DNA of 64,000 nucleotides from Longimicrobiales bacterium. GTDB lineage: Bacteria > Gemmatimonadota > Gemmatimonadetes > Longimicrobiales > Gaopeijiaceae. A program made the translations under genes and the position numbers. Location of the stretch: positions 320,001-384,000 of the forward strand of contig OZ241869.1 in NCBI GenBank assembly GCA_965202805.1. Reading direction: 5' to 3'. Below are positions 13,864 through 35,657 of the stretch, piece by piece; position 1 is the first letter of the stretch; every line of letters starts with the position of its first letter. A model generated the notes under the pieces. That model had not been told where the DNA came from. It ran no database searches and saw only the letters and a program-made list of their open reading frames with translations.

Positions 13864-15918
13864 ATGCAGCGGCTGACCGTCCTCGCGTCTCTGACCCTCC
13901 TGTCGATCTCCGTGGTCGCGCCCGGCCGCGCGCATGCACAGGCCGCTGCCGGGAGCGTCGTCCGGCTCGAGGCGGTACCCCCGTCCGTCGTCGTGATGAC
14001 GGGCGAGGAAGTCCCGTTCGAAGTGCGCGCGCTCGACGCCCGGGGGCGCGTGGTGGCGGACGCCCAGGTGCGGACGGCGGCTCCGCGGGCGGCGGCGACC
14101 GTGCGGGGAGGCACGGTCCGCGGGCGGACTGCGGGCGAGTACGAGATCGTGGTGACGCTGCTGGCCCCGCCCGGATACGAGGGAACGCCGCCCGGCCTGC
14201 GCGTGCCGCTCACGGTGCTGGCCCCCGAGGTCGCGACGGTGGAGGTCACGGCCGAAACCGGTCGCCTCTACCAGGGAACCACCCTCCGCCACACCGCCAC
14301 CGCGCACCACGCGGACGGATCGGTGCGGCCGGGCCCGGTGGTGTCGTGGTCGAGCTCCGATCCGTCCGTTGCCACCGTCGACCGCTTCGGCTACGTGACC
14401 GCCACCGGCACGGGTGCGGTCACCATCCGGGCCGACGTTGAGGGGGTGGTCGGGGCGGCCGCCTACGACGTGGCCGCGTTCCCGGCGGCCTCGCTGGAGA
14501 TCACCGGGCTGGCCGACGAGGTGCGCACCGGTGACGTGCAGCACCTCAGCGCGGTGGCGCGCGACGCGTCCGGCGAGGTGGTCGCCGACGTTCCGGTGAC
14601 CTGGACCCACACGGCCGTCCCCGACGCGGACATGATCGCGCCCAGCGCGCCCGGGCAGATCGCGCGCGGGCGCTTCGTCGCGGACGTGCCCGGCGTGTAC
14701 ACGATCGTCGCCAACGCAGGCCCGCTGGCGGCGCGCGCGACCCTCCAGGCCCTTCCCCGCGACGTCGTGCGCGAGATGACCATGGTGGGGAAGGGGAGCA
14801 CGGCCACGGTGCGCACGACCGACTTCTGGGTGTTCGAGGGGCTGGACGGCCGCGACTACGCCCTCACGGGCGCCAAGATGTCGGACGGGTACGCCTACGC
14901 CTGGGACATCACCAACCCGGCCGCCATCTTCAAGACCGACTCGCTGCAGGTGGACGCACGCGCGGTGAACGACGTGAAGGTCTCTCCGGACGCCCGCTAC
15001 GCCACCCTCACCCGCGAGGGCGCCTCCAACCGCCGCAACGGGGTCGTCATCCTCGACCTGGCGGACCCGGCCCATCCGGTGATCGCCTCCGAGGTGGTCG
15101 AAGGGCTCACCGGCGGCGTCCACAACGCCTTCCCGGACGAGGACTACGCCTATGTGCTCTCCGCCGGCGACAAGTACGTCATCATCGACATGGCCGACAT
15201 CTACAACCCGCGCGTTGTGGGCGAGTACAATCATCCCGACAGCCGCCTGCACGACGTCTGGGTCCACGACGGCATCGCCTACTCGGCCGAGTGGGAGAAG
15301 GGCATGGTGGCGGTGGACGTCGGCAACGGCCGCTGGGGCGGCACTCCGGAGAATCCGGTACTGATCGCCGAGCTCGCGGTGCCGACCGGCACCACGCACG
15401 CCATCTTCCCCTACCGGTCGCAGTCCACGGACCGGTTCTACGTCTTCCTGGGCGACGAGAACATGCAGAGGAGGGGGCTGGCCAACGAGGGACCGCGCGC
15501 GGGCGGCACGTACCAGCTTCCGTACGACCCGGAGACCGGGATGAACGGGGTGCCGCTGGCGACCCAGGGCTACATCCAGGTGGTCGATTTCACCGATCCC
15601 GACAACCCCGAGATGGTCGCCCGCTACGAGGTCACCGAGTACGGCACCCACAACATCTGGGTCGAGGACGACATCCTCTATCAGGCGTATTATGAGGGCG
15701 GGCTGCGCATCGTCGATGTTTCCGGCGAGCTGATGGGCAACCTGTACACGCAGGGCCGCGAGATCTCCGTCCACAAGTCCACCGACGTGAACGGATGGGT
15801 GCCCAACTCGACCATGGTGTGGAGCGCGATGCCCTTCAAGGGACACGTCTTCTTCTCCGACACCAACTCCGGGCTCTGGTCGGTGAAGGTGGAGCCGCCC
15901 CAGCGGCCGGTGTCGTAG
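13864..15918 (+). CDS. Secreted protein with Ig-like (Big_2-type) domains and LVIVD-repeat beta-propeller
   Basis: Signal MQRLTVLASLTLLSISVVAPGRAHA; WSSSDPSVATVD Ig motif; VVILDLADPAHP, YVIIDMADIYNP, IQVVDFTDPDNP, LRIVDVS repeats. Confidence 0.8.
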   Translation: MQRLTVLASLTLLSISVVAPGRAHAQAAAGSVVRLEAVPPSVVVMTGEEVPFEVRALDARGRVVADAQVRTAAPRAAATVRGGTVRGRTAGEYEIVVTLLAPPGYEGTPPGLRVPLTVLAPEVATVEVTAETGRLYQGTTLRHTATAHHADGSVRPGPVVSWSSSDPSVATVDRFGYVTATGTGAVTIRADVEGVVGAAAYDVAAFPAASLEITGLADEVRTGDVQHLSAVARDASGEVVADVPVTWTHTAVPDADMIAPSAPGQIARGRFVADVPGVYTIVANAGPLAARATLQALPRDVVREMTMVGKGSTATVRTTDFWVFEGLDGRDYALTGAKMSDGYAYAWDITNPAAIFKTDSLQVDARAVNDVKVSPDARYATLTREGASNRRNGVVILDLADPAHPVIASEVVEGLTGGVHNAFPDEDYAYVLSAGDKYVIIDMADIYNPRVVGEYNHPDSRLHDVWVHDGIAYSAEWEKGMVAVDVGNGRWGGTPENPVLIAELAVPTGTTHAIFPYRSQSTDRFYVFLGDENMQRRGLANEGPRAGGTYQLPYDPETGMNGVPLATQGYIQVVDFTDPDNPEMVARYEVTEYGTHNIWVEDDILYQAYYEGGLRIVDVSGELMGNLYTQGREISVHKSTDVNGWVPNSTMVWSAMPFKGHVFFSDTNSGLWSVKVEPPQRPVS

Positions 15919-15926
15919 GAGACGAC

Positions 15927-17489
15927 ATCCTCGACGCCGTCATCATCGGCGGGGGGCCCGCCGGTTCGGCGGCAGCCCGCCTGCTCGCGCTCCGGGGGCA
16001 CTCCGCCGTTCTTCTGACGCGTCCCCCGACCGGCCATCCCGCGCTCGCCGAGTCCGTCCCGCCCAGCACGCGCAAGCTCTTCACCCTGCTGGGGGTGGCG
16101 CCCGGGATCGACGACGCGGGCTTCTTCCCGGCGCGGGGCAATCTGGTCCGGTGGGGCGACGGCCCGCTCCGGCGCGCCGACTTCCCGCCCGGGGCCGCCG
16201 GTCATCACGTGGTCCGCGACGTCTTCGACGCGCTGCTTCTGGATTTCGCCGAAGAGGCCGGAGCCGACGTGCGGCGCAATGCCACTGTGCGGCGCGTAAT
16301 CCTCGAGGGAGCGGATTCTGATCGGGAGGGGGAGCAGCTTCAGCGCGTCGAATACGAGAACGACCGCGGAATCGCGAGCGCCCTTCACGCCCGCCTGGTG
16401 CTCGACTGCTCCGGCCGCTCGGGCGTGATCGCCAACCCTGATCTGCGCGTCCACGACCAGACCAACGCCACCGTCGCACTGGCGGGGGTGTGGCGAGCGA
16501 ACGCCGGCGAATCCCCCGCCGAGCCGTACACCCTGGTGGAGAGCTACCGCGACGGCTGGGCCTGGTCGATGCCGGTATCGGACACCCGCCGCTACCTGAC
16601 CATGATGATCGACCCCCGCAGGACCGGGCTGCTGAAGGGGCGGGGCCGGCGCAGTCTCTACCTGGCCGAAGTGGAGAAGACCCGGGAGGCGCGCCGCCTG
16701 GTGGCTGCCGCCCGCCTGGTGAGTGACATCAGCGGCCACACCGCCTCGCAGTATGCCGCCACCCGGTTCGCCGGCGACGGATTTCTGCTGGTCGGAGACG
16801 CGGCCAGCTTCGTCGATCCACTTGCCTCCGTGGGGGTCAAGAAGGCGCTCGCCTCCGCCTGGCTTGCGTCGGTGGTGGTCCACACCTGCATCTCAACGCC
16901 CGACATGCGGGATGTGGCGCTCGAGTTCTTCGAGAGCCGCGAGCGGGCAACCTGGCTCGCCCATCGGCGCCATACCGCGCAGTTCTACCAGGAGGCGGCC
17001 AGCGCCCACGGCCACGGCTTCTGGAGCGCCCGCGCGATGGCCGCGGATGACACTTCCGGGGCTGCCGCAACACCCGCCCTGGACCCTGCCGCCGAAGTGC
17101 ACATCCCGGTCCCGACCGAGCCCGACATCGCCGCCCTCCGTCAGGATCCGGATGTCCTGCGGGCCTTCAGCGATCTTCGAGCGGCCCCCTCGATCCGGCT
17201 CCGTCCCGCGCCCGGCCTGCGCCGCCTGCAGCTGCCCGCGGTGCGCGGCCGCCGAATCGTCCTGGACGAACACCTCGCCTCGCCCGCGCTTCCCGAGGGC
17301 GTGCGCTTCCTGCGCGATGTCGATCTCCCTCCCCTCCTCGAAATGGCAGGGGAGCACCACCAGGTCCCCGATCTCTACGAGGCCTATCTGGATCGCGTTG
17401 CCGCCGTGTCGCTGCCCGACTTCCTGGGTGCACTCTCCGTCCTCCTCGGCAAGGGGATGCTGAAGAACGATGATGATTCCAGCGCGTAA
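15927..17489 (+). CDS. qhpG: FAD-dependent monooxygenase (halogenase-like fold), QhpG-type Trp hydroxylase for CTQ biogenesis
   Basis: DAVIIGGGPAG Rossmann motif, LDCSGR, GWAWSMP, LVGDAASFVDPLASVGVKKAL; adjacent to qhpADCBFE; start placed at ATC after AGGAG (alternative ATG at 15795). Confidence 0.78.
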   Translation: MLDAVIIGGGPAGSAAARLLALRGHSAVLLTRPPTGHPALAESVPPSTRKLFTLLGVAPGIDDAGFFPARGNLVRWGDGPLRRADFPPGAAGHHVVRDVFDALLLDFAEEAGADVRRNATVRRVILEGADSDREGEQLQRVEYENDRGIASALHARLVLDCSGRSGVIANPDLRVHDQTNATVALAGVWRANAGESPAEPYTLVESYRDGWAWSMPVSDTRRYLTMMIDPRRTGLLKGRGRRSLYLAEVEKTREARRLVAAARLVSDISGHTASQYAATRFAGDGFLLVGDAASFVDPLASVGVKKALASAWLASVVVHTCISTPDMRDVALEFFESRERATWLAHRRHTAQFYQEAASAHGHGFWSARAMAADDTSGAAATPALDPAAEVHIPVPTEPDIAALRQDPDVLRAFSDLRAAPSIRLRPAPGLRRLQLPAVRGRRIVLDEHLASPALPEGVRFLRDVDLPPLLEMAGEHHQVPDLYEAYLDRVAAVSLPDFLGALSVLLGKGMLKNDDDSSA

Positions 17490-18378
17490 CGGCCTGGCGA
17501 CCGCTGCGGGAGCGCTGGGGGCTCTGCTGCTCCTCGCCTGCGTGCGTCAGGTGAATGCCCAACAGCGGGAGCCGGGTACGGTGTTCCGGGACTGCGAAGC
17601 CTGTCCCGAGATGGTCGTGGTGCCGCCGGGGAGCTTCATGATGGGATCGCCCCGGACGCCGCGGGGCATGTACCTCGACGAGGGCCCACGCCACGAGGCG
17701 ACGATCGGGTATCCTCTTGCCGTCGGTGTCTTCGAGGTGACCTTCGCCGAATGGGATGCCTGCGTGCGCGGGGGCGGCTGCTTGGGCTACCGGCCCGACG
17801 ACCAGGGCCTGGGCCGCGGAAGGCGACCCGTCATCAACGTCTCCTGGGAGGACGCGACAAGCTATGTCGCGTGGCTGTCGGAGCAGACCGGCGAGGACTA
17901 CCGGTTGCCGAGCGAGGCGGAATGGGAGTTCGCGGCGCGTGCCGGGACGGAGACGGCGTGGTACTGGGGAGAGGATCCGACGGAACAGTGCCGTTACGCC
18001 AACGGATTTGACCGCGACCTTGCCGAAGAACTCAGGGCGGAGGAGGTCAGGATCGGGGTTGTGCCCGCGTCCTGTGCCGACGGATACGACGGGGTGGCCC
18101 CCGTGGGTTCGTTCGAGCCGAACGGGTTCGGACTCCATGACGTGGCGGGCAACGTGTGGGAGTGGACGAACGACTGCTGGAACGAGAGCTATGCGGGGGC
18201 CCCGGCCGACGGAAGTGCCTGGACGAACGGCTACTGTGTCCCTCGGGTGGTGCGCGGCGGCTCCTGGAACTCCCCTGCCGGGCTCCTGCGATCGGCCTTC
18301 CGCGACGGAATACCGCGTCGGGATCGAGGGTTCAACGTCGGCTTCCGTGTCGCGCGGACCATGGGCTCAGCTCCCTGA
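17470..18378 (+). CDS. Exported FGE-sulfatase (SUMF1)-fold protein, non-catalytic type
   Basis: FRDCEACPEMVVVPPGSFMMG, YRLPSEAEWEFAARAG, GLHDVAGNVWEW, RGGSW...GFRVAR; lacks the FGE catalytic Cys pair. Confidence 0.85.
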   Translation: MMIPARNGLATAAGALGALLLLACVRQVNAQQREPGTVFRDCEACPEMVVVPPGSFMMGSPRTPRGMYLDEGPRHEATIGYPLAVGVFEVTFAEWDACVRGGGCLGYRPDDQGLGRGRRPVINVSWEDATSYVAWLSEQTGEDYRLPSEAEWEFAARAGTETAWYWGEDPTEQCRYANGFDRDLAEELRAEEVRIGVVPASCADGYDGVAPVGSFEPNGFGLHDVAGNVWEWTNDCWNESYAGAPADGSAWTNGYCVPRVVRGGSWNSPAGLLRSAFRDGIPRRDRGFNVGFRVARTMGSAP

Positions 18379-18424
18379 AGTCCACGGGTCGCGCCCGCGG
18401 CAGCGGCCCCGCCCCCGCCGGCCG

Positions 18425-19066
18425 TCAAGCCGGATCGGCCGGTTCCCCCGTGTAGAACGCGATGGTGCGCCGTGCCGCGGCCTGGGCTGCAGCGGGATTC
18501 GCCTCGGCTTCGATTGCCGCCCGCGCCCACCCTTCGCCGCTGCCCCGGATGAACGCCCTGCCGTCCCGCGACGCCGCAAAGGCCAACTCATCCGGCTTCG
18601 GCGCGTCGGGTTGCTCGAGGTGGAACGCGAGTCCCAGAAGGCCCAACTCCCAGCCGACGCCGGTCGCCCCCGGCCCGTACCGGCTCCAGTGTTCCGACAA
18701 CCGCTGTGTGTGCGTCAACCTGAGCCGCGCGCGGCCCGCTCCACCCTGCGAGAAGCCTGCCTCCACCCAGCTCACGTCCCCGCCGAACTCCCATGTGAGC
18801 GCGAAGTGCCACGGCCGTCCGCAGGCCGTGATCACGCCACCCGCGTTGCCTTCCAGCTGATATCGGCCGCCGGGCTTGAGGTCGCCGCTGACCGGCAGGA
18901 ACCATCGTGGGAGCCGCTCGCTGCCGGTTACGGCGTCCCACAGATCCTCCAGGGATGTCGCGTAGGTGCGAGACAGGAGGACCGCGCGAGCGGGCTGCCC
19001 ATCACGCTCCAGCACCGACACCGAGCGCTCCGTGGCGCCCAGGTGTTCCGCGACGTCGAAGTTCAT
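18425..19066 (-). CDS. SRPBCC/AHSA1-like domain protein
   Basis: SRTYATSLEDLWDAVT..ERLPRWFLPVSGDLKPGGRYQLEGNAGG; GPGATGVGWE. Confidence 0.85.
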   Translation of the reverse strand: MNFDVAEHLGATERSVSVLERDGQPARAVLLSRTYATSLEDLWDAVTGSERLPRWFLPVSGDLKPGGRYQLEGNAGGVITACGRPWHFALTWEFGGDVSWVEAGFSQGGAGRARLRLTHTQRLSEHWSRYGPGATGVGWELGLLGLAFHLEQPDAPKPDELAFAASRDGRAFIRGSGEGWARAAIEAEANPAAAQAAARRTIAFYTGEPADPA

Positions 19067-19087
19067 GGCTTCTTCCTCCTGCTCCGG

Positions 19088-19333
19088 TCAGCCATCGTTT
19101 GCGGCCCGGTGAAGTCTGGTTTCGCGCACCGCGATGGCCAGCGCTTCTTCATCCCCCAAACCGGCACTGGAACGCGCCCGGGCGACGATTTCGCGCGCGG
19201 AGTTGGAGGGGAGTATACCCCCGAATTCGAGGCTTTCTTCGATGATCGTGCTCATGGAGCGTCCCTGCCGAGCCGCGGCGTCCTTCAAGGCTTGATGCGC
19301 CCGGTCCGTCAGGTTGATCGTGAGGCGTGGCAT
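19088..19333 (-). CDS. Ribbon-helix-helix (CopG-like) DNA-binding protein
   Basis: MPRLTINL beta strand followed by HQALKDAAARQGRSMSTIIEESL helices. Confidence 0.75.
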   Translation of the reverse strand: MPRLTINLTDRAHQALKDAAARQGRSMSTIIEESLEFGGILPSNSAREIVARARSSAGLGDEEALAIAVRETRLHRAANDG

Positions 19334-19434
19334 GGCAGGTGTCTCCGAGTTTGTCTCCCGTCGGCCCGGACGATATCATCCCGTATGCCGCATACACCGG
19401 TAAACAAGAGTTTCTCCAACCCACGGGTCCCCGC

Positions 19435-21225
19435 ATGGTTCACCGCCCTCGCCTGACCCGCGCAGGCCTGTTCGCGGGGATGTTCCTCGCCGCGGGCGCA
19501 TTCGTCGCCTCCGGGGCCGCTGCCCAAAGCGACGAAGGCTTCCCCATCGAGCACGAGACCATCCGTGCCCGGTGCGCGGCGTGCCACCTCCCGGATTCAG
19601 AGGGCCGCATGTCGCGCATCTCCTGGGAGCGCAAGACGCCCGAGGGATGGCAGACTTCCCTCCAGCGCATGATCGCGCTCAACGGCGTCACGCTGGCGCC
19701 CGAGGAAGCGCGCGAGATCGTCAAGTACCTCTCGGACACTCAGGGGCTGGCGCCCGAGGAGCTGCGTCCGGGCCTCTTCGAGGTCGAGAAGCGGATGATC
19801 GACCACCGCTACCTGGCGGACACCGAAGTGGAGTTCACCTGCATACAATGCCATTCGATGGGGCGGGTGATCACCCAGCGGCGCACGCGCGAGGAGTGGG
19901 ATCTGCTCATGGCGACCCACCGCGGCTACTATCCGCTGACGGACTTCCAGGCGTTCCTGCGGATGGGGCCCGCGCCCGCCGAGGCCGGTCCGGATGGCGA
20001 GCCGCCCGACACGCGCCAGCCCATGGAGCGCGCCGTCGACCACCTCTCCGAGGCCTTCCCCCTTCACACCGCCGAGTGGGCGGCATGGTCGGCCACCATG
20101 CGCTCGCCCCGCCTGGAGGGCACCTGGGTTCTCTCCGGCCACCAGCCCGGCCGTGGCGCGGCTTTCGGCACGGTAACCATGGGGTCGGCCGGGACGGATG
20201 AGTTCGTCACCCGGGCCAGCTACGCCTTCCCGGCGACCGGAGAGAGCGTCACCCGCCGGGGCCGCGGGCTGGTGTATACCGGCTACCAGTGGCGTGGGCG
20301 CTCCTTCGAGTCCGACGAGGCCGACGGCGCGGTGCGCGAGGTGATGCTCGTCGAGCGTGGAGTGAACGAGATCACCGGGCGCTGGTTCCGGGGCGACTAC
20401 GACGAGATCGGGATGGATGTGCGCCTGACCCGCGCGGCCGGCTCCGCGGTGGTCGCGGGGGTGCATCCCCGGGCCATTCAGCTCGGCGGCGGCGAGCGCG
20501 AGGTGCGCGTCTTCGGAGCGGGCTTCAACGGTAGTTTCGGGCCCGGGGATATCGACCTCGGCCCCGGGCTTACGGTCAACCGGGTGGTCAGCGCCTCCTC
20601 GGAAGAGATCGCCCTCAACGTGACCGTGGCCCCCGACGCGGTCCCCGGCGGCCGCGACGTCTTCGTGCGCGATGCGAGCCTGGCACAGGCGGTGGTGGTC
20701 CACGACGGCATCGACCGCATCCAGGTGCTGCCGCGCACCGGCATGGCCCGCGTGGGCGGAATCGTCTTCCCGAAGGGGTACCAGCAGTTCGAGGCGGTCG
20801 CCTTCGACGACGGGCCCGACGGGCGGCCGAGTACCGACGACGACCTGGAGCTCGGGCCGGTCGCGGTCGACTGGAGCCTCGAGGAATACGCGGCCACCTT
20901 CGACGACAACGACATCCAGTTCGTCGGACACATCGACCGGACCGGGCTGTTCGTGCCGGCGGTCGACGGCCCCAACCCCGACCGGGACCGCAACCGGAAC
21001 AACGTCGGCGACGTATGGGTGGTGGCGACGCTGGCGCAGGACGACAACGGTGACCGTCCGCTGCGAGCCCGCGCCCACCTGGTCGTGACCGTCCCGCTCT
21101 ACCTCCGTTTCGACGCGGGGGCAAGTGTAAGCACGGGAGCCAGCCCGGAACCGGCGGCAAGCCCGAGCGGGCGTGGAAACCGAACCCCGGGACCGGGTCC
21201 CGGAATGGGAGGCAGCCCGAAATGA
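19435..21225 (+). CDS. qhpA: Quinohemoprotein amine dehydrogenase alpha subunit (diheme c)
   Basis: Signal peptide; heme motifs CAACH and CIQCH; SRISWERKTPEGW; YTGYQWRG; C-terminal LVVTVP. Confidence 0.93.
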   Translation: MVHRPRLTRAGLFAGMFLAAGAFVASGAAAQSDEGFPIEHETIRARCAACHLPDSEGRMSRISWERKTPEGWQTSLQRMIALNGVTLAPEEAREIVKYLSDTQGLAPEELRPGLFEVEKRMIDHRYLADTEVEFTCIQCHSMGRVITQRRTREEWDLLMATHRGYYPLTDFQAFLRMGPAPAEAGPDGEPPDTRQPMERAVDHLSEAFPLHTAEWAAWSATMRSPRLEGTWVLSGHQPGRGAAFGTVTMGSAGTDEFVTRASYAFPATGESVTRRGRGLVYTGYQWRGRSFESDEADGAVREVMLVERGVNEITGRWFRGDYDEIGMDVRLTRAAGSAVVAGVHPRAIQLGGGEREVRVFGAGFNGSFGPGDIDLGPGLTVNRVVSASSEEIALNVTVAPDAVPGGRDVFVRDASLAQAVVVHDGIDRIQVLPRTGMARVGGIVFPKGYQQFEAVAFDDGPDGRPSTDDDLELGPVAVDWSLEEYAATFDDNDIQFVGHIDRTGLFVPAVDGPNPDRDRNRNNVGDVWVVATLAQDDNGDRPLRARAHLVVTVPLYLRFDAGASVSTGASPEPAASPSGRGNRTPGPGPGMGGSPK

Positions 21226-22664
21226 GCACAGTGGCCACCGCCCCGGACATCCTCACCCTCGGGGAGTTCCACTCCTTCCAGGCGGAGGGCTCGACCTTCC
21301 TCTACCTGGTCCCGAGCGCGGCCATCTTCCGCCTCGACGCGGCCTCGCTGGCGATGCTGGAGGCGCTCGAGAAGGCAAACCACACGCGCGCGGAGCTGGT
21401 GCAGCGGCTGGAGAGCCGTTTTCCGGCGGAGGAGGTTGCCAACCGCATCGACGAACTGCTCGGCGTGCGCGCCGTCGGCCTTCTCGGCAAGCCGGCCCCG
21501 GCCCCTCCCGACATGCTGCCGCCCAAGGGCTTCCCGCTGACCACGATGGTCCTGAACGTCACCAGCAAGTGCAACCTGGCCTGCACCTACTGCTACGAGT
21601 ACGGCGACGACCGCATCGTCGAGGCCGACTCCAAGCCCCGCTACATGGACCTCGAGACCGCCCGCGAGAGCGTCGACTTCATGTTCGAGCAGGGCGGCTC
21701 CAACCGCCTGGTGCACCTCACCTTCTTCGGCGGCGAGACCCTCCTCAACTTCAAGCTGCTCAAGAAAACCGCGGCATACGCCCGTCAGCGCGCCCGCGAA
21801 GTGGGGAAGGAGGTCGACTTCAGCCTCACCACCAACGCGACCCTGCTCAAACCGGAGATCGTGGACTGGCTGGCCGAAAACCGGGTGGGCGTGACCGTTT
21901 CCATCGACGGGCCGCGCGAGGTGCAGGACGGGCTGCGCGTCTTCTCCAACGGCATGGGCAGCTACGACATCATCCTGCCGAAGATCAAGGATCTGCTCGC
22001 CCGCCACCGCACCCGCCCCATCGGCGCGCGCGTGACCCTCACCAGCAAGAACCTGGACGTGAAGCAGATCTTCACGCACCTGACCGAGGAGATCGGCTTC
22101 TGGGAGGTGGGCTTCGCCCCGGTGACCAGCTCGTCGTGCCGTGACTTCTCCATCTCCGACGCCGGCTACGACCACATGCTGGGCCAGTTCGAGGAGCTCG
22201 CCTGGGATTTCTTCGAGGCCGCCTGCGCGGAGCAGCACCACGGTTTCTCCAACGTGAAGGACACCCTGGAGGAGATCCACAAGGGCGTGAGCAAGGCGTA
22301 CCCGTGCGGCGCCGGCCTGGGGCTCATGGGCGTGGCGACCGACGGCGACGTGGCGCTCTGCCATCGCTTTGCGGGATCCGACGAGCACAAGATCGGGTCG
22401 GTGTCGGAAGGCGTCGACGTCGACGTGCAGTACGACTACCTGAAGAAGCACCACATCAACAGCAAGACCGACTGCCACACCTGCTGGGCCCGCCCCATCT
22501 GCGCCGGCGGGTGCTATCACGAGGCCCACACCCGCTACGGCACCACGTCAACCCCGAACCTGCACTTCTGCGAGTGGGTTCGCAGCTGGACCGATACCTG
22601 TCTTCGAGTTTACGGAGCCATCTCGGAGCGCAACCCGGCATTCCTGGCGCGGTTCGACGCCTGA
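21222..22664 (+). CDS. qhpD: QHNDH maturation radical SAM/SPASM thioether-crosslinking enzyme
   Basis: CNLACTYCY, FFGGETLLN, SPASM cysteines PCGAG...LCHRF...CHTCWARPICAGGCYHE...FC; ATGA overlap with qhpA. Confidence 0.94.
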   Translation: MSTVATAPDILTLGEFHSFQAEGSTFLYLVPSAAIFRLDAASLAMLEALEKANHTRAELVQRLESRFPAEEVANRIDELLGVRAVGLLGKPAPAPPDMLPPKGFPLTTMVLNVTSKCNLACTYCYEYGDDRIVEADSKPRYMDLETARESVDFMFEQGGSNRLVHLTFFGGETLLNFKLLKKTAAYARQRAREVGKEVDFSLTTNATLLKPEIVDWLAENRVGVTVSIDGPREVQDGLRVFSNGMGSYDIILPKIKDLLARHRTRPIGARVTLTSKNLDVKQIFTHLTEEIGFWEVGFAPVTSSSCRDFSISDAGYDHMLGQFEELAWDFFEAACAEQHHGFSNVKDTLEEIHKGVSKAYPCGAGLGLMGVATDGDVALCHRFAGSDEHKIGSVSEGVDVDVQYDYLKKHHINSKTDCHTCWARPICAGGCYHEAHTRYGTTSTPNLHFCEWVRSWTDTCLRVYGAISERNPAFLARFDA

Positions 22665-22707: not shown

Positions 22708-23124
22708 TTGGCACTGAAACCGATCAACCGCAAAGCCGACCGGATGGTGACCTGGCTGGAGCACCAGGGCGCCGTGCCTCCGGTCGAGCAGATGGCCGGG
22801 CCCGTGGATCCCGCGGGCGCGAACGCGGGCGCCGATGAGAGCGCGGAGGACGTGGTGGCGCTCGGGGGGCGTCTCCCCGAAATCCCCGAGATCCCGCACA
22901 TCCCGCTGGGGTGCTCGCTGGTCTTCGCCCCGGGCTGGGAGGTCGACGAGGCGGGCGGCACCGCGGGGCTCTGCCAGCCGGTGGAGCGCGACCTCTTCGA
23001 CTGCCACCTGGCGTGCTTCTGGCCCGCCCACGTCCCGGACCAGCTGAACCACAGCCCGGACTGGACCGGCAAGTGCGCGGCGGCGCAGAACGACTGGCGC
23101 AAGCTGGAGATGATCTTCCCGTAG
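22708..23124 (+). CDS. qhpC: QHNDH gamma subunit (CTQ precursor peptide)
   Basis: Leader LKPINRKA...EDVVAL; core GCSLVFAPGWEVD...CQPVERDLFDCHLACFWPAHVPD...DWRKL with all canonical Cys/Asp/Glu/Trp spacings; SD GAGGAG upstream of TTG. Confidence 0.93.
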   Translation: MALKPINRKADRMVTWLEHQGAVPPVEQMAGPVDPAGANAGADESAEDVVALGGRLPEIPEIPHIPLGCSLVFAPGWEVDEAGGTAGLCQPVERDLFDCHLACFWPAHVPDQLNHSPDWTGKCAAAQNDWRKLEMIFP

Positions 23125-23213: not shown

Positions 23214-23251
23214 CTGACAAAATGGCAGACATGTCTGACAAAATGGCAGAC
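23214..23251. repeat. 17-bp perfect direct repeat CTGACAAAATGGCAGAC x2 with 21-bp period
   Basis: Copies at 23214-23230 and 23235-23251, overlapping the candidate qhpB starts. Confidence 0.75.
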
Positions 23252-24418
23252 TTGACCGGCAAAAGGCCTCGCCGGCCGGCAATCGCCACGCTCGTCGTAT
23301 TGCCGCTCGCAATTGCCCTGATCGCCGGAGCCGCCTCATCCGCGGTCGCGCAGGAGGTCCGCTCCGGGGGCAACGGCACCATCTACATGGGGGCGTACAA
23401 CAACTCCGTCTACGTGATCGACGAAGCAACGCTGGAGGTGACGCGGCGCATTACGACCACCACCGGCATCCCGAACCGCTTCGACCTCGCCCCGGACAAC
23501 GAAACCCTCTACGTGCGCGACGCGGCGATGGAGCACGTCGAGGTGGTCGACCTCGTGGAAGGGCGCTCGGTCGACTCCTTCACGCTGAGCGAGGGCAACA
23601 CCAGGGTGCGCATCCGCACGATGGCGGTGGATCCCGGCGAGGAGTACATCCTGCTCGCGGTGCGCAGCTACACCAAGCTGCTCGACCGCTTCGAGATCAG
23701 CGACTTCGAGCTGGTGCGCGTCGACCTGGACTCGCACGAGGTGACCGACACCGTCCCGCTGCCCTTCGACGAGCAGCGGCAGGGCGTCAACCTCATGTTC
23801 TCCCCGGATGGCGAACTCCTCTACTTCTTCGGCCGCGACATCATCGCCGTGGAGACGGAGAACTTCACCGAGGTCGATCGCTGGGAGCTGTCGCGTCCCC
23901 TCGAGGAGGGACTCGGGCGCATCAACCTGAACTTCCAGCGCAGTCCCTTCGACGAGGAAGGCATCTTCACCGACCTGTTCCGCATGACGGACCCGGTGCA
24001 GGGCCGGCGCATGATGGGCATCGCACGGGTGGACCTGGCGGCGCAGGATGTGGACTTCTACACCCTCGGCCCGAGCGAGCCGGTCAGCTTCCAACTGGCC
24101 CCGGGCGGGCGCAAGGGGTACGGCCTCCGCTCGGAGATCGGGTTCTACGAGTTCTGGACCTTCGATCTGGAGGGGCGCCGGGTCGAGAGCCGGGTGGAGT
24201 TCCCCGGACGCCCGCGGATGGCGCTCCAGCCGAGCTCAAACGGCGAACTGCTCTACATCTACAACGCGGGCAACACCATCGACGTCTACGACGCCGAGAC
24301 GCACGAGCTGCTGCGCACGGTGTGGCTGGACGCCGACATGACGCGCTTCATCCTGGTGCCGGGGATGGCGGCCGCGGACGACTCCGGCGCGTCCGGGAAC
24401 GGCGCCGGCGGGTCGTAG
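23243..24418 (+). CDS. qhpB: QHNDH beta subunit (YVTN-like beta-propeller)
   Basis: Signal peptide ending AVA-Q; propeller motifs NNSVYVIDEATLEV, FSPDGELLY, LYIYNAGNTIDVYDAET; position after qhpC; start may be 23222-23252. Confidence 0.82.
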   Translation: MADLTGKRPRRPAIATLVVLPLAIALIAGAASSAVAQEVRSGGNGTIYMGAYNNSVYVIDEATLEVTRRITTTTGIPNRFDLAPDNETLYVRDAAMEHVEVVDLVEGRSVDSFTLSEGNTRVRIRTMAVDPGEEYILLAVRSYTKLLDRFEISDFELVRVDLDSHEVTDTVPLPFDEQRQGVNLMFSPDGELLYFFGRDIIAVETENFTEVDRWELSRPLEEGLGRINLNFQRSPFDEEGIFTDLFRMTDPVQGRRMMGIARVDLAAQDVDFYTLGPSEPVSFQLAPGGRKGYGLRSEIGFYEFWTFDLEGRRVESRVEFPGRPRMALQPSSNGELLYIYNAGNTIDVYDAETHELLRTVWLDADMTRFILVPGMAAADDSGASGNGAGGS

Positions 24419-24425
24419 GGAGCCT

Positions 24426-26246
24426 CTGTCGGCACCCCGCAAACGTCGGTCGGGACGTCTCACGTTCGGGTCTGCACCCGACGAGGCCCGGTCCGCGCCC
24501 GCTGAGGTCCGGTCCGGACGCTTCCTCGACCGCGAAATCCGCTGGGCGCTGGGGTTCGTCCGTCCCTACGCGAAGTGGCTGGTCCTGGTGCTGGGCCTGA
24601 GCCTGGCCGGCACCGCGCTCTCGCTCTACATCCCCTATCTCACCAGGGACCTGGTCGACACCGCCCTCCTCGGGCAGGACTCCGCCGCCCTCACCCGCAT
24701 CGTGGCGCTCTTCGCGGGCATCACTGCGGTGTCGTTCGGGTTCAACGTCGTCGCGGGGCTCCGCTACACGCGCACCTCGGCGGACATCCTCTTCGACATG
24801 CGGCTGGCGCTCTACCGGCACCTGCAGCGGCTCTCGCCCCGGTTCTACGCGCGCACGCCCGTGGGCGACATCATGTCGCGCATCAACAACGACATCGGCG
24901 AGATCCAGCGCATCGTCTCCGAGAGCCTGCTCGCGTGGCTGGGCAACATCGCGTACCTGCTCGGGACGGTGGGGATCCTGATCTGGCTGGACGCGCGGCT
25001 GTTCGCGGTGAGCCTGATCATGCTGCCGCCCTGTCTCTGGGCCCTGGTGCGCTACCGCCGGCGCCTGGAGAGCATCACCGCGGAGCTGCGCGAGCGGAGC
25101 GCGGAGATCGGCAGCTTCCTGATCGAGACCGTCCTCGGGCTCAAGCTGACGGTGGCCTCGAACGCGCAGCGGCGGGAGCAGAGGCGCTTTCGCGCGAAAA
25201 ACGACGCCTTCATCGAGAAGCTGATGTCGATGCGGCTGCTGACCTATCTCGCCGGGGGGCTGCCCGGGCTCATCCTCGCGGGTGGGGTGGCGATCATCTT
25301 CCTGTACGGAGGTCAGAGGGTGATCTCGGAGGCGATCACGATGGGGACGTTCGTCGCCTTCATGGCCTATCAGATGCGGCTCCTCGGGCCGATCCAGGGG
25401 CTGATGGGACTGTACGCGAGCCTAGCGACGGCGCGGGTCTCGCTGGGGCGCGTGCATGTGATTCTGGACACGCCGATCCAGGTGCGGGACCCGGAGCGGC
25501 CGGAGAGCGCGCAGGGGCTGGGCGGCGAGCTGCGGCTGGAGGGGGTGAGCTTCTCGTTCGGGCGAGGGGAGCCGGTGTTGGACGGGGTCGACCTGGTCGT
25601 GGGGGAGGGGGAGGTGGTGGCGGTCGTGGGCGCGAGCGGGAGCGGCAAGTCCACCATCGTGGACCTCTTGTCGCGGCAGCTCGACCCGGATGCCGGCCGG
25701 ATCCTCCTGGGCGGCCGCGACCTGCGTGCGCTCCGGCTGCGGGACGTGCGCGCGCGGGTGGTCGCGGTCGAGCAGGAGCCTTTCCTGTTCAACACCACCA
25801 TCGCGGAGAACATCCGCTACGGCCGGCCGGACGCGTCGGACGCGGAGGTGGAGGCTGCCGCGCGCGCGGTGGGGCTGGACGCCTTTCTCGCAACCTTGCC
25901 GGACGAGCTCGCCACCCGGGTCGGCGAGCAGGGGCGGGAGCTCTCGGCCGGGCAGCGCCAGCGGGTCGCGGTCGCGCGCGCCTTCCTGGCCGACCCGGCG
26001 GTACTGGTGCTCGACGAACCCACCTCGTCGCTCGACCCGGCCTCGGAGCGCGCGCTGATGGAGGGCTACCAGGTCGTGATGCGGGGCCGCACGACCATCC
26101 TGGTGTCCCATCGGCTCGCGCTCGCCCGGCGGGCCGACCGGGTGGTGGTGCTGGCGCGCGGCCGCATCGTGGAGGAGGGCACGGCCGCGGTACTGCTGGG
26201 CCGGGGCGGGACCTTCGCCCGGTTGTTCGGGAGGGAGGGGGGTTAG
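24426..26246 (+). CDS. qhpF: ABC exporter (TMD+NBD), QhpF-type
   Basis: TMD plus GASGSGKST, LSAGQRQR, LDEPTSSLD; frame open from 24342 with elbow-helix-like WALGFVRPY before the first canonical start (GTG 24588); true start uncertain. Confidence 0.8.
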   Translation: MSAPRKRRSGRLTFGSAPDEARSAPAEVRSGRFLDREIRWALGFVRPYAKWLVLVLGLSLAGTALSLYIPYLTRDLVDTALLGQDSAALTRIVALFAGITAVSFGFNVVAGLRYTRTSADILFDMRLALYRHLQRLSPRFYARTPVGDIMSRINNDIGEIQRIVSESLLAWLGNIAYLLGTVGILIWLDARLFAVSLIMLPPCLWALVRYRRRLESITAELRERSAEIGSFLIETVLGLKLTVASNAQRREQRRFRAKNDAFIEKLMSMRLLTYLAGGLPGLILAGGVAIIFLYGGQRVISEAITMGTFVAFMAYQMRLLGPIQGLMGLYASLATARVSLGRVHVILDTPIQVRDPERPESAQGLGGELRLEGVSFSFGRGEPVLDGVDLVVGEGEVVAVVGASGSGKSTIVDLLSRQLDPDAGRILLGGRDLRALRLRDVRARVVAVEQEPFLFNTTIAENIRYGRPDASDAEVEAAARAVGLDAFLATLPDELATRVGEQGRELSAGQRQRVAVARAFLADPAVLVLDEPTSSLDPASERALMEGYQVVMRGRTTILVSHRLALARRADRVVVLARGRIVEEGTAAVLLGRGGTFARLFGREGG

Positions 26247-26280: not shown

Positions 26281-27045
26281 ATGACCCCAATGGAAGAATG
26301 GGAACACCGGGAGTTGCGACTGGACGCTCCCCCGCTGGACGAACGTCGAGGCGAGGGAGTGCGGGTCGCGGTGGTGGACAGCGGCGTTCACGCGATGCAT
26401 CCCCACGTCGGTGGGGTCGCGGGTGGCGTGGCCATTGGGTCGGACGGGTCGGAAGCCGACGACTACGTCGACCGGCTCGGCCACGGGACGGCGGTGACCG
26501 CAGCCATCAGGGAGAAGGCGCCCGCAGCCGAGTTGTTCGCCGTGAAGGTATTTGGCGAGCGGCTGGCCACCAGTTGTGGCGCCCTGGTGCGCGCCGTCGA
26601 ATGGGCGGTGGAGCATGAGGCGCGGCTCGTGAACCTCAGCCTCGGCACGTCGAATCCGGCGCACGAATCCAGGCTGGCCGCAGCCGTGAACCAGGCAGCG
26701 GAGCGCGGCGCGCTCGTGGTGTCGGCTCGGCAAGGCGATGGCGTGCGCTGGCTTCCGGGATCGGTCCCGGGCGCCATCGGCGTGTTGCTGGACTGGAGCT
26801 GTCCCCGCCATGCGGTGCGGGTGGGAACCGACCACCAGGGGACCCCGGCGTTCCTCGCCTCGGGTTTCCCGCGACCGATCCCCGGCGTTTCTCCCGCGCG
26901 CAACCTGGGCGGCATCAGCTTCGCGGTAGCCAACGTGACGGGCGTGCTTGCCCGGCTGTTGGCGGCGGAGCCGGAGGCGGGCAGCGCGGGTCAGGTCTTC
27001 GAGCTGGCCCGTCGTCACGCCGTCCTGCGGCCAGCCAGCCAGTAG
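26281..27045 (+). CDS. qhpE: Subtilisin-like (S8) leader-peptide protease
   Basis: Triad motifs VAVVDSG, GHGTAV, GISFAVANVTG; oxyanion Asn region altered (VSAR); last gene of qhp run. Confidence 0.85.
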   Translation: MTPMEEWEHRELRLDAPPLDERRGEGVRVAVVDSGVHAMHPHVGGVAGGVAIGSDGSEADDYVDRLGHGTAVTAAIREKAPAAELFAVKVFGERLATSCGALVRAVEWAVEHEARLVNLSLGTSNPAHESRLAAAVNQAAERGALVVSARQGDGVRWLPGSVPGAIGVLLDWSCPRHAVRVGTDHQGTPAFLASGFPRPIPGVSPARNLGGISFAVANVTGVLARLLAAEPEAGSAGQVFELARRHAVLRPASQ

Positions 27046-28466
27046 AAGACCAGGCCGGCCGCGATCAGCGCCAGGCCCATCCATCCCTGGGACGGGCGGT
27101 CGAGCAGGATGTACAGCAGCGTCCACGAGGTCAGCGCCAGGTACACGATGGGCGTGACCGGATATCCCCAGGCGCGGAAGGGGCGTTCGAGTTCCGGCTC
27201 GCGCATCCGCAGCACGAAGATTCCCGCCACCGCGAGCAGGCTGTTGAGCCCCAGCGTGAATCCCGAGAACACCAGAATCGCCTCGAAGGACGCGCTGAGG
27301 ATGAAGAGGAGGGACAGCGCGGCCTGCGTCAGAATCGCGACCCTGGGGATGCCTGCCGGGGTCCTCTTCGCGAGGAAGCCAAAGGCGGGATGGTCCTCGC
27401 CGATGACGTGCAGGACCCGTGGGCCCGCCAGCACCATGGCGCTCACCGTGGAGACCAGCAGTACGGCCAGGGCGACGCCCATGATGTCGGCTCCGAGGGG
27501 GCCGAAGATGTGCATGGCGGCCACGTGGCCCACCTCGAGCCTTCCTTCCAGCTCGGACATCGGCGCGGCCCTCAGGAAGGTGTAGTTGAGGGCCAGATAG
27601 AGCACCATCACCAGCAGGGTGCCGCCCGCGAGCACGCCCGGCAGCGTGCGGCCCGGGTTCTCGAGCTCGCCGGTCAGGTAGGTGGCGGCGTTCCACCCCG
27701 TGTACGCGTACGAGACGTAGATGAGCGACACGGCGAAGGCGCCGCCGAAGACGAGCTGCGCGTCCCCCGCGGCAGGGAGGAGCGCGACGGGCTCGGGGGC
27801 CTCGACCAGGGCGAAGGCGGCGGCGCAGAAGACGGCGATCAGGATCACCTTGACCGTGGTGAAGCTGCGCTGGAAGAAGGACGAGGCGCCGTAAGTGGCC
27901 GAGTGCACCCACGCCGCCGCGGCCACCAGGCCCGCCGCCAGCCAGGTGGGCGACAGGGAAGGGAAGACCGACGCCAGGTAGGCGCCGAAGGTGATCGCGG
28001 CCAGGGCCGTGGGGGCGGCGAACCCGACCGTGGCCGAGATCCACCCCGACACGAACCCCGCCGCCGGGTGGTAGATGCGTCCCAGAAAGGTGTACTCCCC
28101 GCCCGAACGCCGCAGCGCCGCGCCCAGCTCCGCGTAGGTGATCGCGCCGCAGAAGGCCGCCACGCCGCCGACCACCCAGAGCATCAGGAGCGGGAAGGTG
28201 GAGCGGATGGTCTCCAGCTGGAAGCCCAGGCTGGTGAACACGCCGGTGCCGATCATGTTGGCCACCACGACCGCGGCCGCCGCGTGGAAGCCGTATCCGC
28301 GCACGGATGTCGCCCGGCTGTCCGCGGGCTCCCGAGGCGCAGCGCCGCGACCGCCCGGCACACTGTCGTCGCGCCCGGCGCCGCCGGGCCCGGATGCCGT
28401 CTCGCCTGCGGAAGTGGCGTGCATGGAGGGCCTGGGCGTGGATTCGTTCTCGATGCGACCATCCAT
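27015..28466 (-). CDS. APC-family amino acid/polyamine permease
   Basis: ANMIGTGVF, YAELGAALRRSGGEY, YAYTGWN, RPFRAWGYP; about 12 hydrophobic segments. Confidence 0.9.
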   Translation of the reverse strand: MDGRIENESTPRPSMHATSAGETASGPGGAGRDDSVPGGRGAAPREPADSRATSVRGYGFHAAAAVVVANMIGTGVFTSLGFQLETIRSTFPLLMLWVVGGVAAFCGAITYAELGAALRRSGGEYTFLGRIYHPAAGFVSGWISATVGFAAPTALAAITFGAYLASVFPSLSPTWLAAGLVAAAAWVHSATYGASSFFQRSFTTVKVILIAVFCAAAFALVEAPEPVALLPAAGDAQLVFGGAFAVSLIYVSYAYTGWNAATYLTGELENPGRTLPGVLAGGTLLVMVLYLALNYTFLRAAPMSELEGRLEVGHVAAMHIFGPLGADIMGVALAVLLVSTVSAMVLAGPRVLHVIGEDHPAFGFLAKRTPAGIPRVAILTQAALSLLFILSASFEAILVFSGFTLGLNSLLAVAGIFVLRMREPELERPFRAWGYPVTPIVYLALTSWTLLYILLDRPSQGWMGLALIAAGLVFYWLAGRRTA

Positions 28467-33375: not shown

Positions 33376-34485
33376 GTGACGACTCCGGCAGAGCCCCACG
33401 TCGAGTTCGAGGACATCGCCAAGAGCTACGATGGCCGGGTGTTGGCGGTCCAGGGATTGAACCTCAGCGTGCGCCGGGGTGAGTTCCTGAGCCTGCTCGG
33501 GCCGTCCGGATCGGGGAAGACGACGTGCCTGATGATGCTCGCCGGGTTTGAAACCCCGACTGCGGGAGCCATCCGCATCGCCGGCCGTTCCGTGCACGCC
33601 CTGCCGCCCCGCAAGCGGGGCATCGGCATGGTGTTTCAGGACTATGCGCTCTTCCCCCACATGACCGTCGAGGACAACCTGGCCTTTCCGCTGGACGTGC
33701 GCGGCATCGGGGGCGACCGACGGCGCGAACTGGTCGACCGGGCGTTGCGGCTGGTCCGGCTGGAGGGTTTCGAGAAGCGCCGGCCGGGGCAGCTCTCGGG
33801 CGGGCAGCAACAGCGGGTGGCGATCGCGCGCGCGCTGGTCTTCGAGCCCGAACTCGTGCTGATGGACGAACCCCTGGGCGCCCTCGACCGCCACCTGCGC
33901 GAAGAGCTGCAGTACGAGATCCGGCGCATCCACCGGACGCTCGGCGTGACCGTCGTCTATGTGACCCACGATCAGCAGGAGGCCATGGTCATGTCGGACC
34001 GGATCGCCGTGCTGCGCGACGGCATGGTCGAGCAGGTGGCCCCCCCCGAAGCCCTGTACGAGGAACCGGTGCGCTCCTTCGTCGCGCGCTTCATCGGCGA
34101 GAACAACCGGCTGCACGGGCGCGTCGTCACGGTTGACGGGGATGTGTGCGACGTCAACGTGGACGGCCAGGTGGTGCGCGGTTATCGGGTCGTGGACTGC
34201 CGGCCGGGGGACCCGGTGACGCTCTCGATCCGGCCGGAGCGCATCACGCTGCATCCGGCGCCGGGGCTGTTCTCCAACCAGTTCGACGCGGTCATCGAGC
34301 ACATCACCTTTGTGGGGGACCACCTGCGCATCCACATGCAGACCTGCGGGCGAGAGGACTTCGTGGCGAAGATCTCGAACGTGGTGGGACAGGGCGGGGT
34401 GCTCGAGGGCGACGAAATCCGCGTGGGATGGACGGCGGCGGACTGCCGGGTCCTGGACTACGGCGGTGTGGAGGGGGCGGTGTGA
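33376..34485 (+). CDS. potA: Polyamine-type ABC transporter ATP-binding protein (PotA family)
   Basis: GPSGSGKTT, VFQDYALFPHM, LSGGQQQR, TOBE-like C-terminus. Confidence 0.85.
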   Translation: MTTPAEPHVEFEDIAKSYDGRVLAVQGLNLSVRRGEFLSLLGPSGSGKTTCLMMLAGFETPTAGAIRIAGRSVHALPPRKRGIGMVFQDYALFPHMTVEDNLAFPLDVRGIGGDRRRELVDRALRLVRLEGFEKRRPGQLSGGQQQRVAIARALVFEPELVLMDEPLGALDRHLREELQYEIRRIHRTLGVTVVYVTHDQQEAMVMSDRIAVLRDGMVEQVAPPEALYEEPVRSFVARFIGENNRLHGRVVTVDGDVCDVNVDGQVVRGYRVVDCRPGDPVTLSIRPERITLHPAPGLFSNQFDAVIEHITFVGDHLRIHMQTCGREDFVAKISNVVGQGGVLEGDEIRVGWTAADCRVLDYGGVEGAV

Positions 34486-34546
34486 ACCGCCGGCGGGCGG
34501 TGGGCCGTCTGGACGTTTCGGACTGCGCGGATGTGAGGAGCACGGC

Positions 34547-35626
34547 ATGAGGGTGGGATTCGCGTGGCCGGCGGCTGTGGCGCTGGCCATGGGCTGTGGC
34601 GGTGACGCCGGCGACTCTCTGACCGTGGGCGCGTGGGGCGGGGCCTACACGCGCGCCTGCAAGATCGCCTACTACGAGCCGTTCATCGCCGAGACCGGCA
34701 TGGTCATCCGCGACGCCCAATACAACGGTGGCCTGGCCGAGGTGCGGGCCCAGGTCGATGTCGGACGGATTCACTGGGATGTGGTGCCCATGGAGATCGC
34801 CGACGCGGTGCGCGGCTGCGACGAGGGGCTGCTCGAGCCGCTCGATCCCGCGATGTGGGCCCCCGGCGCGGACGGCATTCCGCCGCAGGAGGACTTCTTT
34901 CCCGGCACCCTGACCGAGTGCGGCGTCGGCGCGGAGTTCTACGCGACCGTCATCGCCTACAACCGGGAGAACATACCCGGTCCCACGCCGGCGACCATGC
35001 AGGACTTCTTCGACCTGGAGACCTTTCCGGGACGCCGCGGAATGCGCCGCAAGCCCATGGGCAACATGGAGTTCGCGCTCATGGCCGATGGCGTGCCGCC
35101 GGCGCAGGTGTACCAGGTGCTGGACACCCCCGAGGGGATCGAGCGGGCGTTCCGCAAGCTGGACACGATCAAGGACGAGATCGTGTGGTGGGAAGCGGGC
35201 GCCCAGCCGCCGCAGCTCCTCGCCGACGGCGAGGTGACGATGACCACGGCGTACAACGGCCGCATCTTCAACGCCCAGGTGCTGGAAAACCAGCCCTTCG
35301 AGATCATCTGGGACGGCCAGCTGCTCGATTTCGGCCAGTTGGTGATCGTGGCCGGGACGCCGAACCTGGAGGCCGCGCTCGAGTTCCTGGCCTTCGCGAC
35401 CACGCCGCAGTCCATGGCCCGGATCAGCGCCAACATCTCCTACAGCCCGACGCGCTACTCCGGACTGCCGCTCGTGGGGACCCACGCGGAGGCGGGGATC
35501 GACATGCTGCCGCACATGCCGACGTATCCGGAGAACCTGGAACGGGCGCTGCGCAACGACTGGGAGTGGTGGGTGAACCACACGGACGAGATGAACGAGC
35601 GCTTCAGCTCATGGCTGGCGCGATGA
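34547..35626 (+). CDS. Polyamine-type ABC transporter substrate-binding lipoprotein (PotD/SBP_bac_8-like)
   Basis: Lipobox AMGC; WGGAY, FFDLETFPGRRG, QLLADGEV, AYNGRI. Confidence 0.85.
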   Translation: MRVGFAWPAAVALAMGCGGDAGDSLTVGAWGGAYTRACKIAYYEPFIAETGMVIRDAQYNGGLAEVRAQVDVGRIHWDVVPMEIADAVRGCDEGLLEPLDPAMWAPGADGIPPQEDFFPGTLTECGVGAEFYATVIAYNRENIPGPTPATMQDFFDLETFPGRRGMRRKPMGNMEFALMADGVPPAQVYQVLDTPEGIERAFRKLDTIKDEIVWWEAGAQPPQLLADGEVTMTTAYNGRIFNAQVLENQPFEIIWDGQLLDFGQLVIVAGTPNLEAALEFLAFATTPQSMARISANISYSPTRYSGLPLVGTHAEAGIDMLPHMPTYPENLERALRNDWEWWVNHTDEMNERFSSWLAR

Positions 35627-35657
35627 CGGGAGGCTCGATGGCGGGCGGTCCGCGACG

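Follow-up and report, generated by a model that had tools for sequence, protein, structure and literature searches.

The open reading frame at 22708-23124 (+) of the window, by which we mean the whole 64,000-nucleotide stretch analyzed here, is by homology QhpC, the precursor of the gamma subunit of quinohemoprotein amine dehydrogenase (QHNDH), and it carries a fifth cysteine, Cys61, six residues before Asp67. It is likely, although well short of assured, that the neighboring radical SAM/SPASM enzyme QhpD installs a fourth Cys-to-acid thioether in this subunit, joining Cys61 to the C-beta of Asp67, as an earlier sequence-only reading of this DNA had proposed. Our comparative data partly support this proposal, because neither Cys61 nor Asp67 varies among the deep lineages that carry the pair, Cys61 has no partner Cys, and QhpD is the sole conserved Cys-modifying enzyme in the cluster.

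The 138-residue precursor starts at a TTG codon 8 nt after GAGGAG, and belongs to the QhpC family by both NF037958 (115 bits, cut-off 50) and PF08992 (113 bits, cut-off 25). Its residues 67-138 align without a gap to chain residues 5-76 of PDB 1JJU_C and 1JMX_G, the only two solved gamma-subunit sequences and both lacking Cys61, and ORF residue 69 is therefore Cys7. The canonical core (22912-23040, +) is in register with both chains, with the pairs Cys7/Glu16, Cys27/Asp33 and Cys41/Asp49 and the CTQ pair Cys37/Trp43 at exactly the spacing that the sequence-only reading had given them. The two additional codons are also where it had placed them, TGC for Cys61, the predicted thioether donor, at 23074-23076 (+) and GAC for Asp67, the predicted acceptor, at 23092-23094 (+), and their C-x5-D spacing is that of the Cys27-Asp33 bridge. 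Its statement that position 61 is not Cys in Paracoccus and Pseudomonas was correct (Gly in 1JJU, Ala in 1JMX); position 67 is Asp in both. The window protein contains exactly five Cys and its source genome a single qhpC copy. The nearest qhpC loci lie mostly in Gemmatimonadota (Longimicrobiales), with some in Acidobacteriota, and a PF08992 match occurs in 54 of 301 sampled genomes of the window's phylum, including 9 of the 9 others of the genus.

The qhpG-A-D-C-B-F-E cluster around this gene is, as judged from its reading frames, complete and intact, and QhpA, QhpD, QhpE and QhpG each score above a curated cut-off. The predicted FAD monooxygenase for Trp43 hydroxylation, qhpG (15795-17489, +), reaches 241.5 bits on NF049967 (cut-off 240), and its true start probably lies further downstream than 15795. 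Three unrelated small genes separate it from qhpA (19327-21225, +; TIGR03908, 481 bits), the alpha subunit, which has two CxxCH motifs and is otherwise Cys-free. The radical SAM/SPASM thioether synthase gene qhpD (21222-22664, +; TIGR03906, 559 bits, cut-off 453; PF04055) retains an intact CxxxCxxC motif and C-terminal Cys, with a weak PqqD/RRE match (PF05402) at its N-terminus, and the predicted Cys61-Asp67 link thus has an intact thioether synthase beside its substrate. Downstream of qhpC lies qhpB (23222-24418, +), a divergent, Cys-free, probable beta-propeller subunit for which TIGR03907 is the best family, though its 50 bits fall under the cut-off of 223; it matches 1JJU_B weakly (E 1e-5), is 23% identical to Paracoccus QhpB, and has a homologue adjoining qhpC in 79 of 80 related loci. 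A qhpF-type ABC exporter (24588-26246, +; PF00664 and PF00005; 30% to the Paracoccus qhp exporter) and the subtilisin-like leader peptidase gene qhpE (26281-27045, +; NF049966, 166 bits, cut-off 165) complete the cluster. A comparable gene order recurs in the nearest loci, as far as their contigs reach.

Several features of the surrounding DNA deserve mention in their own right. The genes between qhpG and qhpA (17470-19333) are sulfatase-modifying-factor-like (+), AHSA1-like (-) and ribbon-helix-helix (-), the last two being confined to the 12-15 closest loci, and two tandem 21-nt copies (90% identical) at 23214-23255 lie across the qhpB start, duplicating its first codons. An amino-acid permease gene (27015-28466, -) is found only in 14 close loci, and a PotA/PotD-like ABC importer (33376-36872), about 6 kb downstream, lacks an orthologue in the flanking DNA fetched for related loci. 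We rejected the neighboring genes as clues to the substrate, the permease, AHSA1-like, ribbon-helix-helix and LVIVD-repeat genes being present only in the 12-15 closest loci; apparent PotA matches proved to be the ATPase domain of QhpF.

When compared with the enzymes of Paracoccus denitrificans (1JJU/1PBY chain C) and Pseudomonas putida (1JMX/1JMZ chain G), the window QhpC has the same ungapped core, with the three Cys/acid pairs, Cys37/Trp43 and Asp67-Trp68 in common, as well as the motifs at the leader start and at the cleavage-type site; the genes qhpA, D, E, F and G are also shared, along with a probable qhpB. It differs in its fifth Cys, in having Ala12, Asp36 and Phe42 in place of Asp, Gly and Trp, and in a 51-residue leader followed by 17 residues before Cys7, as opposed to 28 and 6 in Paracoccus. 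The window's beta subunit is only about 23% identical to that of Paracoccus, its gene order is G-A-D-C-B-F-E, and no AraC-type qhpR was seen among the ORFs scanned. The window QhpD also resembles the ranthipeptide synthases (QhpD, PapB/freyrasin) in its radical SAM/SPASM architecture, its RRE-type N-terminus and an adjoining substrate gene that encodes a Cys upstream of an Asp; against the PapB model it reaches 288 bits (cut-off 340). QhpC, however, is an enzyme subunit, whereas ranthipeptides are released peptides.

Cys61 is not a sporadic substitution. It stands together with Asp67 in 121 of 121 proteins (the window's own and the best 120 of 2416 homologue matches) and in all 81 related loci examined, and this conservation is not due to chance. 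It is absent from the best 120 of 750 matches to Paracoccus pantotrophus QhpC. A search of 50%-identity representatives (136 matches, many of them fragments or frameshifted) and a further search, using a profile built from 15 deep sequences (best 120 of 610 matches), extended the range, with Cys61-x5-Asp67-Trp68 retained at 30-45% identity. The carriers include Gemmatimonadota, Acidobacteriota, Bacillota, Novosphingobium (sp. RL4) and candidate phyla, and the clusters with Cys61 have members named Bacillus badius, Aneurinibacillus, Sporosarcina, Lindowbacteria, Poribacteria and Sulfopaludibacter. One cluster (P0474; 11 members, 6 read) combines a Paracoccus-like core with Cys61, two deep sequences have C-x6-D spacing, and one member of the window's clade (P0255) has Tyr at position 61, possibly through a sequencing error.

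The joint occurrence of Cys61 and Asp67, the comparison that the sequence-only reading had recommended, is complete but carries little weight when taken alone. Of 559 sequences, 437 passed a pattern parse that discarded 122 as fragments or frameshifts, and these yielded 325 unique cores; all 154 with Cys61 have Asp67 (153 at x5 and 1 at x6), while the 171 without Cys61 have Asp in 166, Glu in 4 and Gly in 1. Because this parse restricts position 67, the count was repeated on an unrestricted HMM alignment (317 unique cores from 513 proteins), where Asp67 is present in 146 of 146 full-length Cys61 cores. The donor and acceptor are thus conserved together at a spacing that QhpD uses, yet 165 of the 171 cores that lack Cys61 have Asp67 too (Glu in 5, Gly in 1), which leaves co-occurrence with little force of its own. 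The C-x5-D spacing on its own is weak evidence as well: of random shuffles of the core, 9% placed Asp at +6 from the Cys, and 38% placed an acid at +6, +8 or +9. Asp67 is 96% conserved where Cys61 is absent, and so has a role of its own; the consulted parts of PMC7876137 include gamma residues 66/67 in a set of surface acids for which docking on QhpG is proposed.

Parsimony on two trees, one of 161 Cys61 rows (length 17.2) and one of 171 rows lacking it (length 17.9), with four probable chimeric or error-laden rows and P0255 left out, gives a finer view. Only C7, E16, C27, D33, C41, W43, P48, D49, C61, D67 and W68 show no change in the Cys61 cores, while other acids change (Asp12 20 times, Asp18 4, Glu31 7, Asp56 21 and position 72 15) and the five residues inside the Cys61-Asp67 ring 11-26 times each. 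In the cores without Cys61 Asp67 changes three times, and Asp12, Asp18 and Glu31 never do. This reversal is no more than suggestive, because several of the invariants are partly fixed by the pattern parse and the excess of Asp67 changes comprises three independent events (p about 0.13 on tree length; the p of 0.024 from a Fisher test of the same contrast ignores kinship).

On the model of the characterized system, QhpD would bind the QhpC leader and close the Cys7-Glu16, Cys27-Asp33 and Cys41-Asp49 rings in sequence; QhpG would hydroxylate Trp43, QhpE would cleave after Ala51, and QhpF would export the chain, with CTQ forming in the periplasmic trimer. To this we add that QhpD, having closed the three known rings, may then close a seven-residue ring between Cys61 and Asp67, a ranthionine (S-C-beta Cys-Asp) crosslink, which would staple the C-terminal segment as a structural, non-catalytic link. 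In this model, the Paracoccus/Pseudomonas lineage probably lost Cys61 and kept Asp67 for its carboxylate. Such behavior would be in keeping with the sequential formation of Cys-Asp and Cys-Glu links by QhpD (consulted parts of PMC7876137) and with the diverse ring sizes accepted by its relative PapB (consulted parts of PMC11002830). Several observations sit less comfortably with it, among them the C-x6-D spacing of two deep sequences and the Tyr61 of P0255. The Cys61-Asp67 ring is Pro-free in the window's clade, unlike the three known rings, and deep homologues at two loci (L117 and L118) keep Cys41 although Asp49 is lost and extra Cys are present, which shows that a Cys can be conserved in this family with no acid to pair with. 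An AlphaFold2 model of the mature core from a 48-row alignment was unusable (pLDDT 43, pTM 0.17), and Foldseek returned no match in the PDB.

Cys61 might instead remain unmodified, its thiol buried and serving only to pack the fold, in which case Asp67 would be kept separately for surface charge or a subunit contact and the C-x5-D spacing would be coincidental. The persistence of Asp67 in 165 of 171 cores without Cys61, the similarly small Ala at position 61 in 136 of those 171, and the 38% chance of an acid at a QhpD-type distance all fit this explanation, which we nevertheless regard as unlikely. A Cys held for steric reasons should exchange with Ala, Ser or Val, and none of these is seen in the window's clade (121 of 121 proteins; all 81 loci); moreover, the neighbors of Cys61 vary freely across the family. 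An invariant free thiol is also unusual in an exported protein. The predicted periplasmic location of the enzyme would suit an intermolecular disulfide, either in a gamma-gamma dimer of two trimers or with another periplasmic protein, or metal binding together with Asp67, and deep homologues with extra Cys near both ends could pair them. Such a role is very unlikely: every Cys of the window's alpha subunit belongs to a heme motif and the beta subunit has none, leaving no disulfide partner within either. Cys counts in the related loci also speak against a disulfide to alpha or beta: over the matched parts, 66 of 69 alpha subunits have exactly four Cys and 71 of 80 beta subunits are Cys-free, with the three Bacillota loci looking similar. 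In addition, noisy clustering of recurrent families around 80 loci revealed no conserved partner gene, and Cys61 persists in loci whose alpha-like gene has no heme domain.

The same clustering disclosed no second modifying enzyme among the recurrent families. That Cys61 is modified through a different partner, a thioether joining it to Trp68, to Trp57 or to the position-72 acid, has the Cys-Trp link of CTQ as a precedent, and Trp68 is as invariant as Asp67. It is nonetheless a highly improbable arrangement, as each of these residues fails somewhere. Trp68 is Phe in an intact deep homologue that retains Cys61 and Asp67, and it is no less invariant among the forms that lack Cys61; Phe or Tyr replaces Trp57 in 15 of 164 sequences; and position 72, an acid (Asp or Glu) in all 121 near homologues counted (the window's protein plus the best 120 of 2416) and so a good acceptor candidate there, fails in deep ones, being Asp in only 101 of 146 Cys61 cores with Lys, Asn, Thr or Gln elsewhere. 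The Cys61-Asp67 thioether remains the reading that we prefer.

The sequence-only reading regarded the five-Cys subunit as a variant, whereas the form is in fact widespread and is probably the ancestral one. Once the cores had been dereplicated at 85%, mean identity was 53% (minimum 30%) among 45 with Cys61 and 71% among 80 without it. A quick QhpC tree of 71 columns, built without an outgroup, is mostly unresolved, with 74 of the 80 non-Cys61 rows in one group. The QhpD tree (27 rows, also without an outgroup, no SPASM sequence for rooting having been found in the window's genome) groups the three proteobacterial enzymes from non-Cys61 loci on a single long branch (100/100) adjoining a Gemmatimonadota/Acidobacteriota/Novosphingobium clade, with Bacillota and deep Cys61 loci across a 96/89 split from the proteobacterial and Gemmatimonadota/Acidobacteriota side. 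Unless the root lies on the long non-Cys61 branch, this topology points to an ancestral Cys61, and it suggests that the four-Cys Paracoccus/Pseudomonas form arose by a single loss.

Neither of the traits that had been linked with Cys61 turned out to travel with it. Position 42 is indeed Phe in the window protein (Trp in 1JJU and 1JMX), as had been noted, but Phe42 is not tied to Cys61, since Trp42 is present in 59 of 164 Cys61 cores, those of Bacillota and other Cys61 forms among them. Rather, the lineage-specific residues Ala12, Asp36 and Phe42 (22927-23019, +) belong to three positions that covary across 337 unique cores. The combination Asp12-Gly36-Trp42 of the characterized enzymes, of which we take Asp12 and Trp42 to line the substrate pocket, is found in 42 Cys61 cores and 167 non-Cys61 cores, and the alternative [Ala/Ser/Phe/Thr]12-Asp36-[Phe/Tyr]42 in 101 and 1, respectively. 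The consulted parts of PMC7876137 describe Asp12 as a surface acid, dock Trp42 in a pocket of QhpG and suggest a catalytic role for Asp33. A different amine preference in the window's clade, as the sequence-only reading had envisaged, is plausible on these patterns; any change of specificity tracks the swap of Asp12/Gly36/Trp42 to Ala/Asp/Phe, and is not a consequence of Cys61. Given the exchange of an acid near the cofactor and the divergent beta subunit, the clade may oxidize amines other than the known QHNDH alkylamines.

The long leader likewise proved independent of Cys61, as Bacillota and other Cys61 forms have short ones. The leader had been put at about 52 residues; it is extended, but its predicted length is 51 (22708-22860, +), set by the site equivalent to that of the 28-residue leader characterized in Paracoccus (consulted parts of PMC7876137) on alignment of the two. 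It comprises a Paracoccus-type N-terminal motif, a low-complexity linker and a QhpE-type site ending at Ala51. The predicted mature chain then opens with a Pro-rich extension of 17 residues before Cys7 (22861-22911, +), which is 10-23 residues long in 119 of the 120 near homologues (best 120 of 2416) and ends in a conserved P-H-x-P-x-G. Leaders of near homologues span 24-58 residues with no conserved middle, and the core of close relatives is almost identical. Residues before Cys7 number 42-75 in the best 120 near homologues of 2416, 29-64 (median 38) in a further 81 forms with Cys61, and about 34 in forms that lack it. We take the extension to be, most plausibly, a tolerant linker of variable length.

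The survey of relatives also brought to light several unusual qhp loci. Clusters in five of them carry a gene of the U32 family (UbiU/TrhP-like) together with a conserved partner (L124:12626-14574, L126:12540-14544, L127:12506-14477, L115:2749-4804 and L117:450-2317), with 37-44% identity between L124 and L115; L124, L126 and L127 are Bacillota-like by QhpC similarity. We found no qhpG in the fetched DNA of these clusters, and the genomes G006, G009, G012 and G015 gave no QhpG-like match (60 bits at best, where a positive control scored 227), making the clusters candidates for O2-independent CTQ maturation. Deep qhp-like loci (L115:90-1586, L116:7835-9334, L118:6716-8123 and L117:7326-7640) have one to three QhpC-like genes with extra Cys, in tandem in L115, L116 and L118, together with one or two beta-propellers and an alpha-like gene that lacks the heme domain and matches domain IV weakly; in L115 and L116 this gene has a FlgD/T9SS-like tail. 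Thr replaces the CTQ residue Cys37 in the QhpC homologues P0304, P0394, P0346 and P0460, the first two of which retain Cys61 and Asp67; these are possibly subunits with an uncrosslinked tryptophylquinone, or inactive ones. A further protein (P0351, 557 aa) fuses a QhpC-like N-terminus to about 450 further residues. Finally, plasmid NZ_CP141945.1 of the cultured strain Novosphingobium sp. RL4 (L082) holds a qhpA-D-C-B-F-E cluster that is unannotated and of the Cys61/Asp36/Phe42 type; the 18 kb fetched there gave no match to qhpG.

In the parts of the literature that we consulted (PMC7876137, PMC8172795, PMC13692751, PMC11951088, PMC11002830, PMC5023235 and bioRxiv 10.1101/2021.04.09.439258), those sources that describe the crosslinks give three Cys-Asp/Glu links, and we found there no description of a fourth QhpD ring in a natural QhpC. 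Nor did our literature searches find mention of a fifth QhpC Cys; an earlier mention may stand in the alignments of Nakai 2012/2014/2015, Datta 2001 and Hudson 2019. The proposed link would draw on Cys-acid thioether chemistry that is already known, and its role is probably structural, so that it would be only moderately surprising. A more inclusive picture is possible, although we hold it to be rather doubtful as a whole: the widest and ancestral form of the QHNDH gamma subunit would contain five thioethers (four radical-SAM rings and CTQ), the three-ring subunit would be a derived loss, and a large Gemmatimonadota/Acidobacteriota/sphingomonad clade, in which the acid near the cofactor was also swapped (Asp12 lost, Asp36 gained, Trp42 to Phe) and the beta subunit is divergent, may oxidize amines other than alkylamines.

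Our understanding of QHNDH chemistry rests wholly on two proteobacterial enzymes. If Cys61 and Asp67 are crosslinked, the three-ring picture drawn from them would describe a derived subgroup, and QhpD would naturally close four rings per chain. A four-ring QhpD would be useful both for studies of processive thioether formation and for the making of multicyclic peptides, and cultured carriers of Cys61 exist in Novosphingobium sp. RL4, Bacillus badius and Aneurinibacillus.
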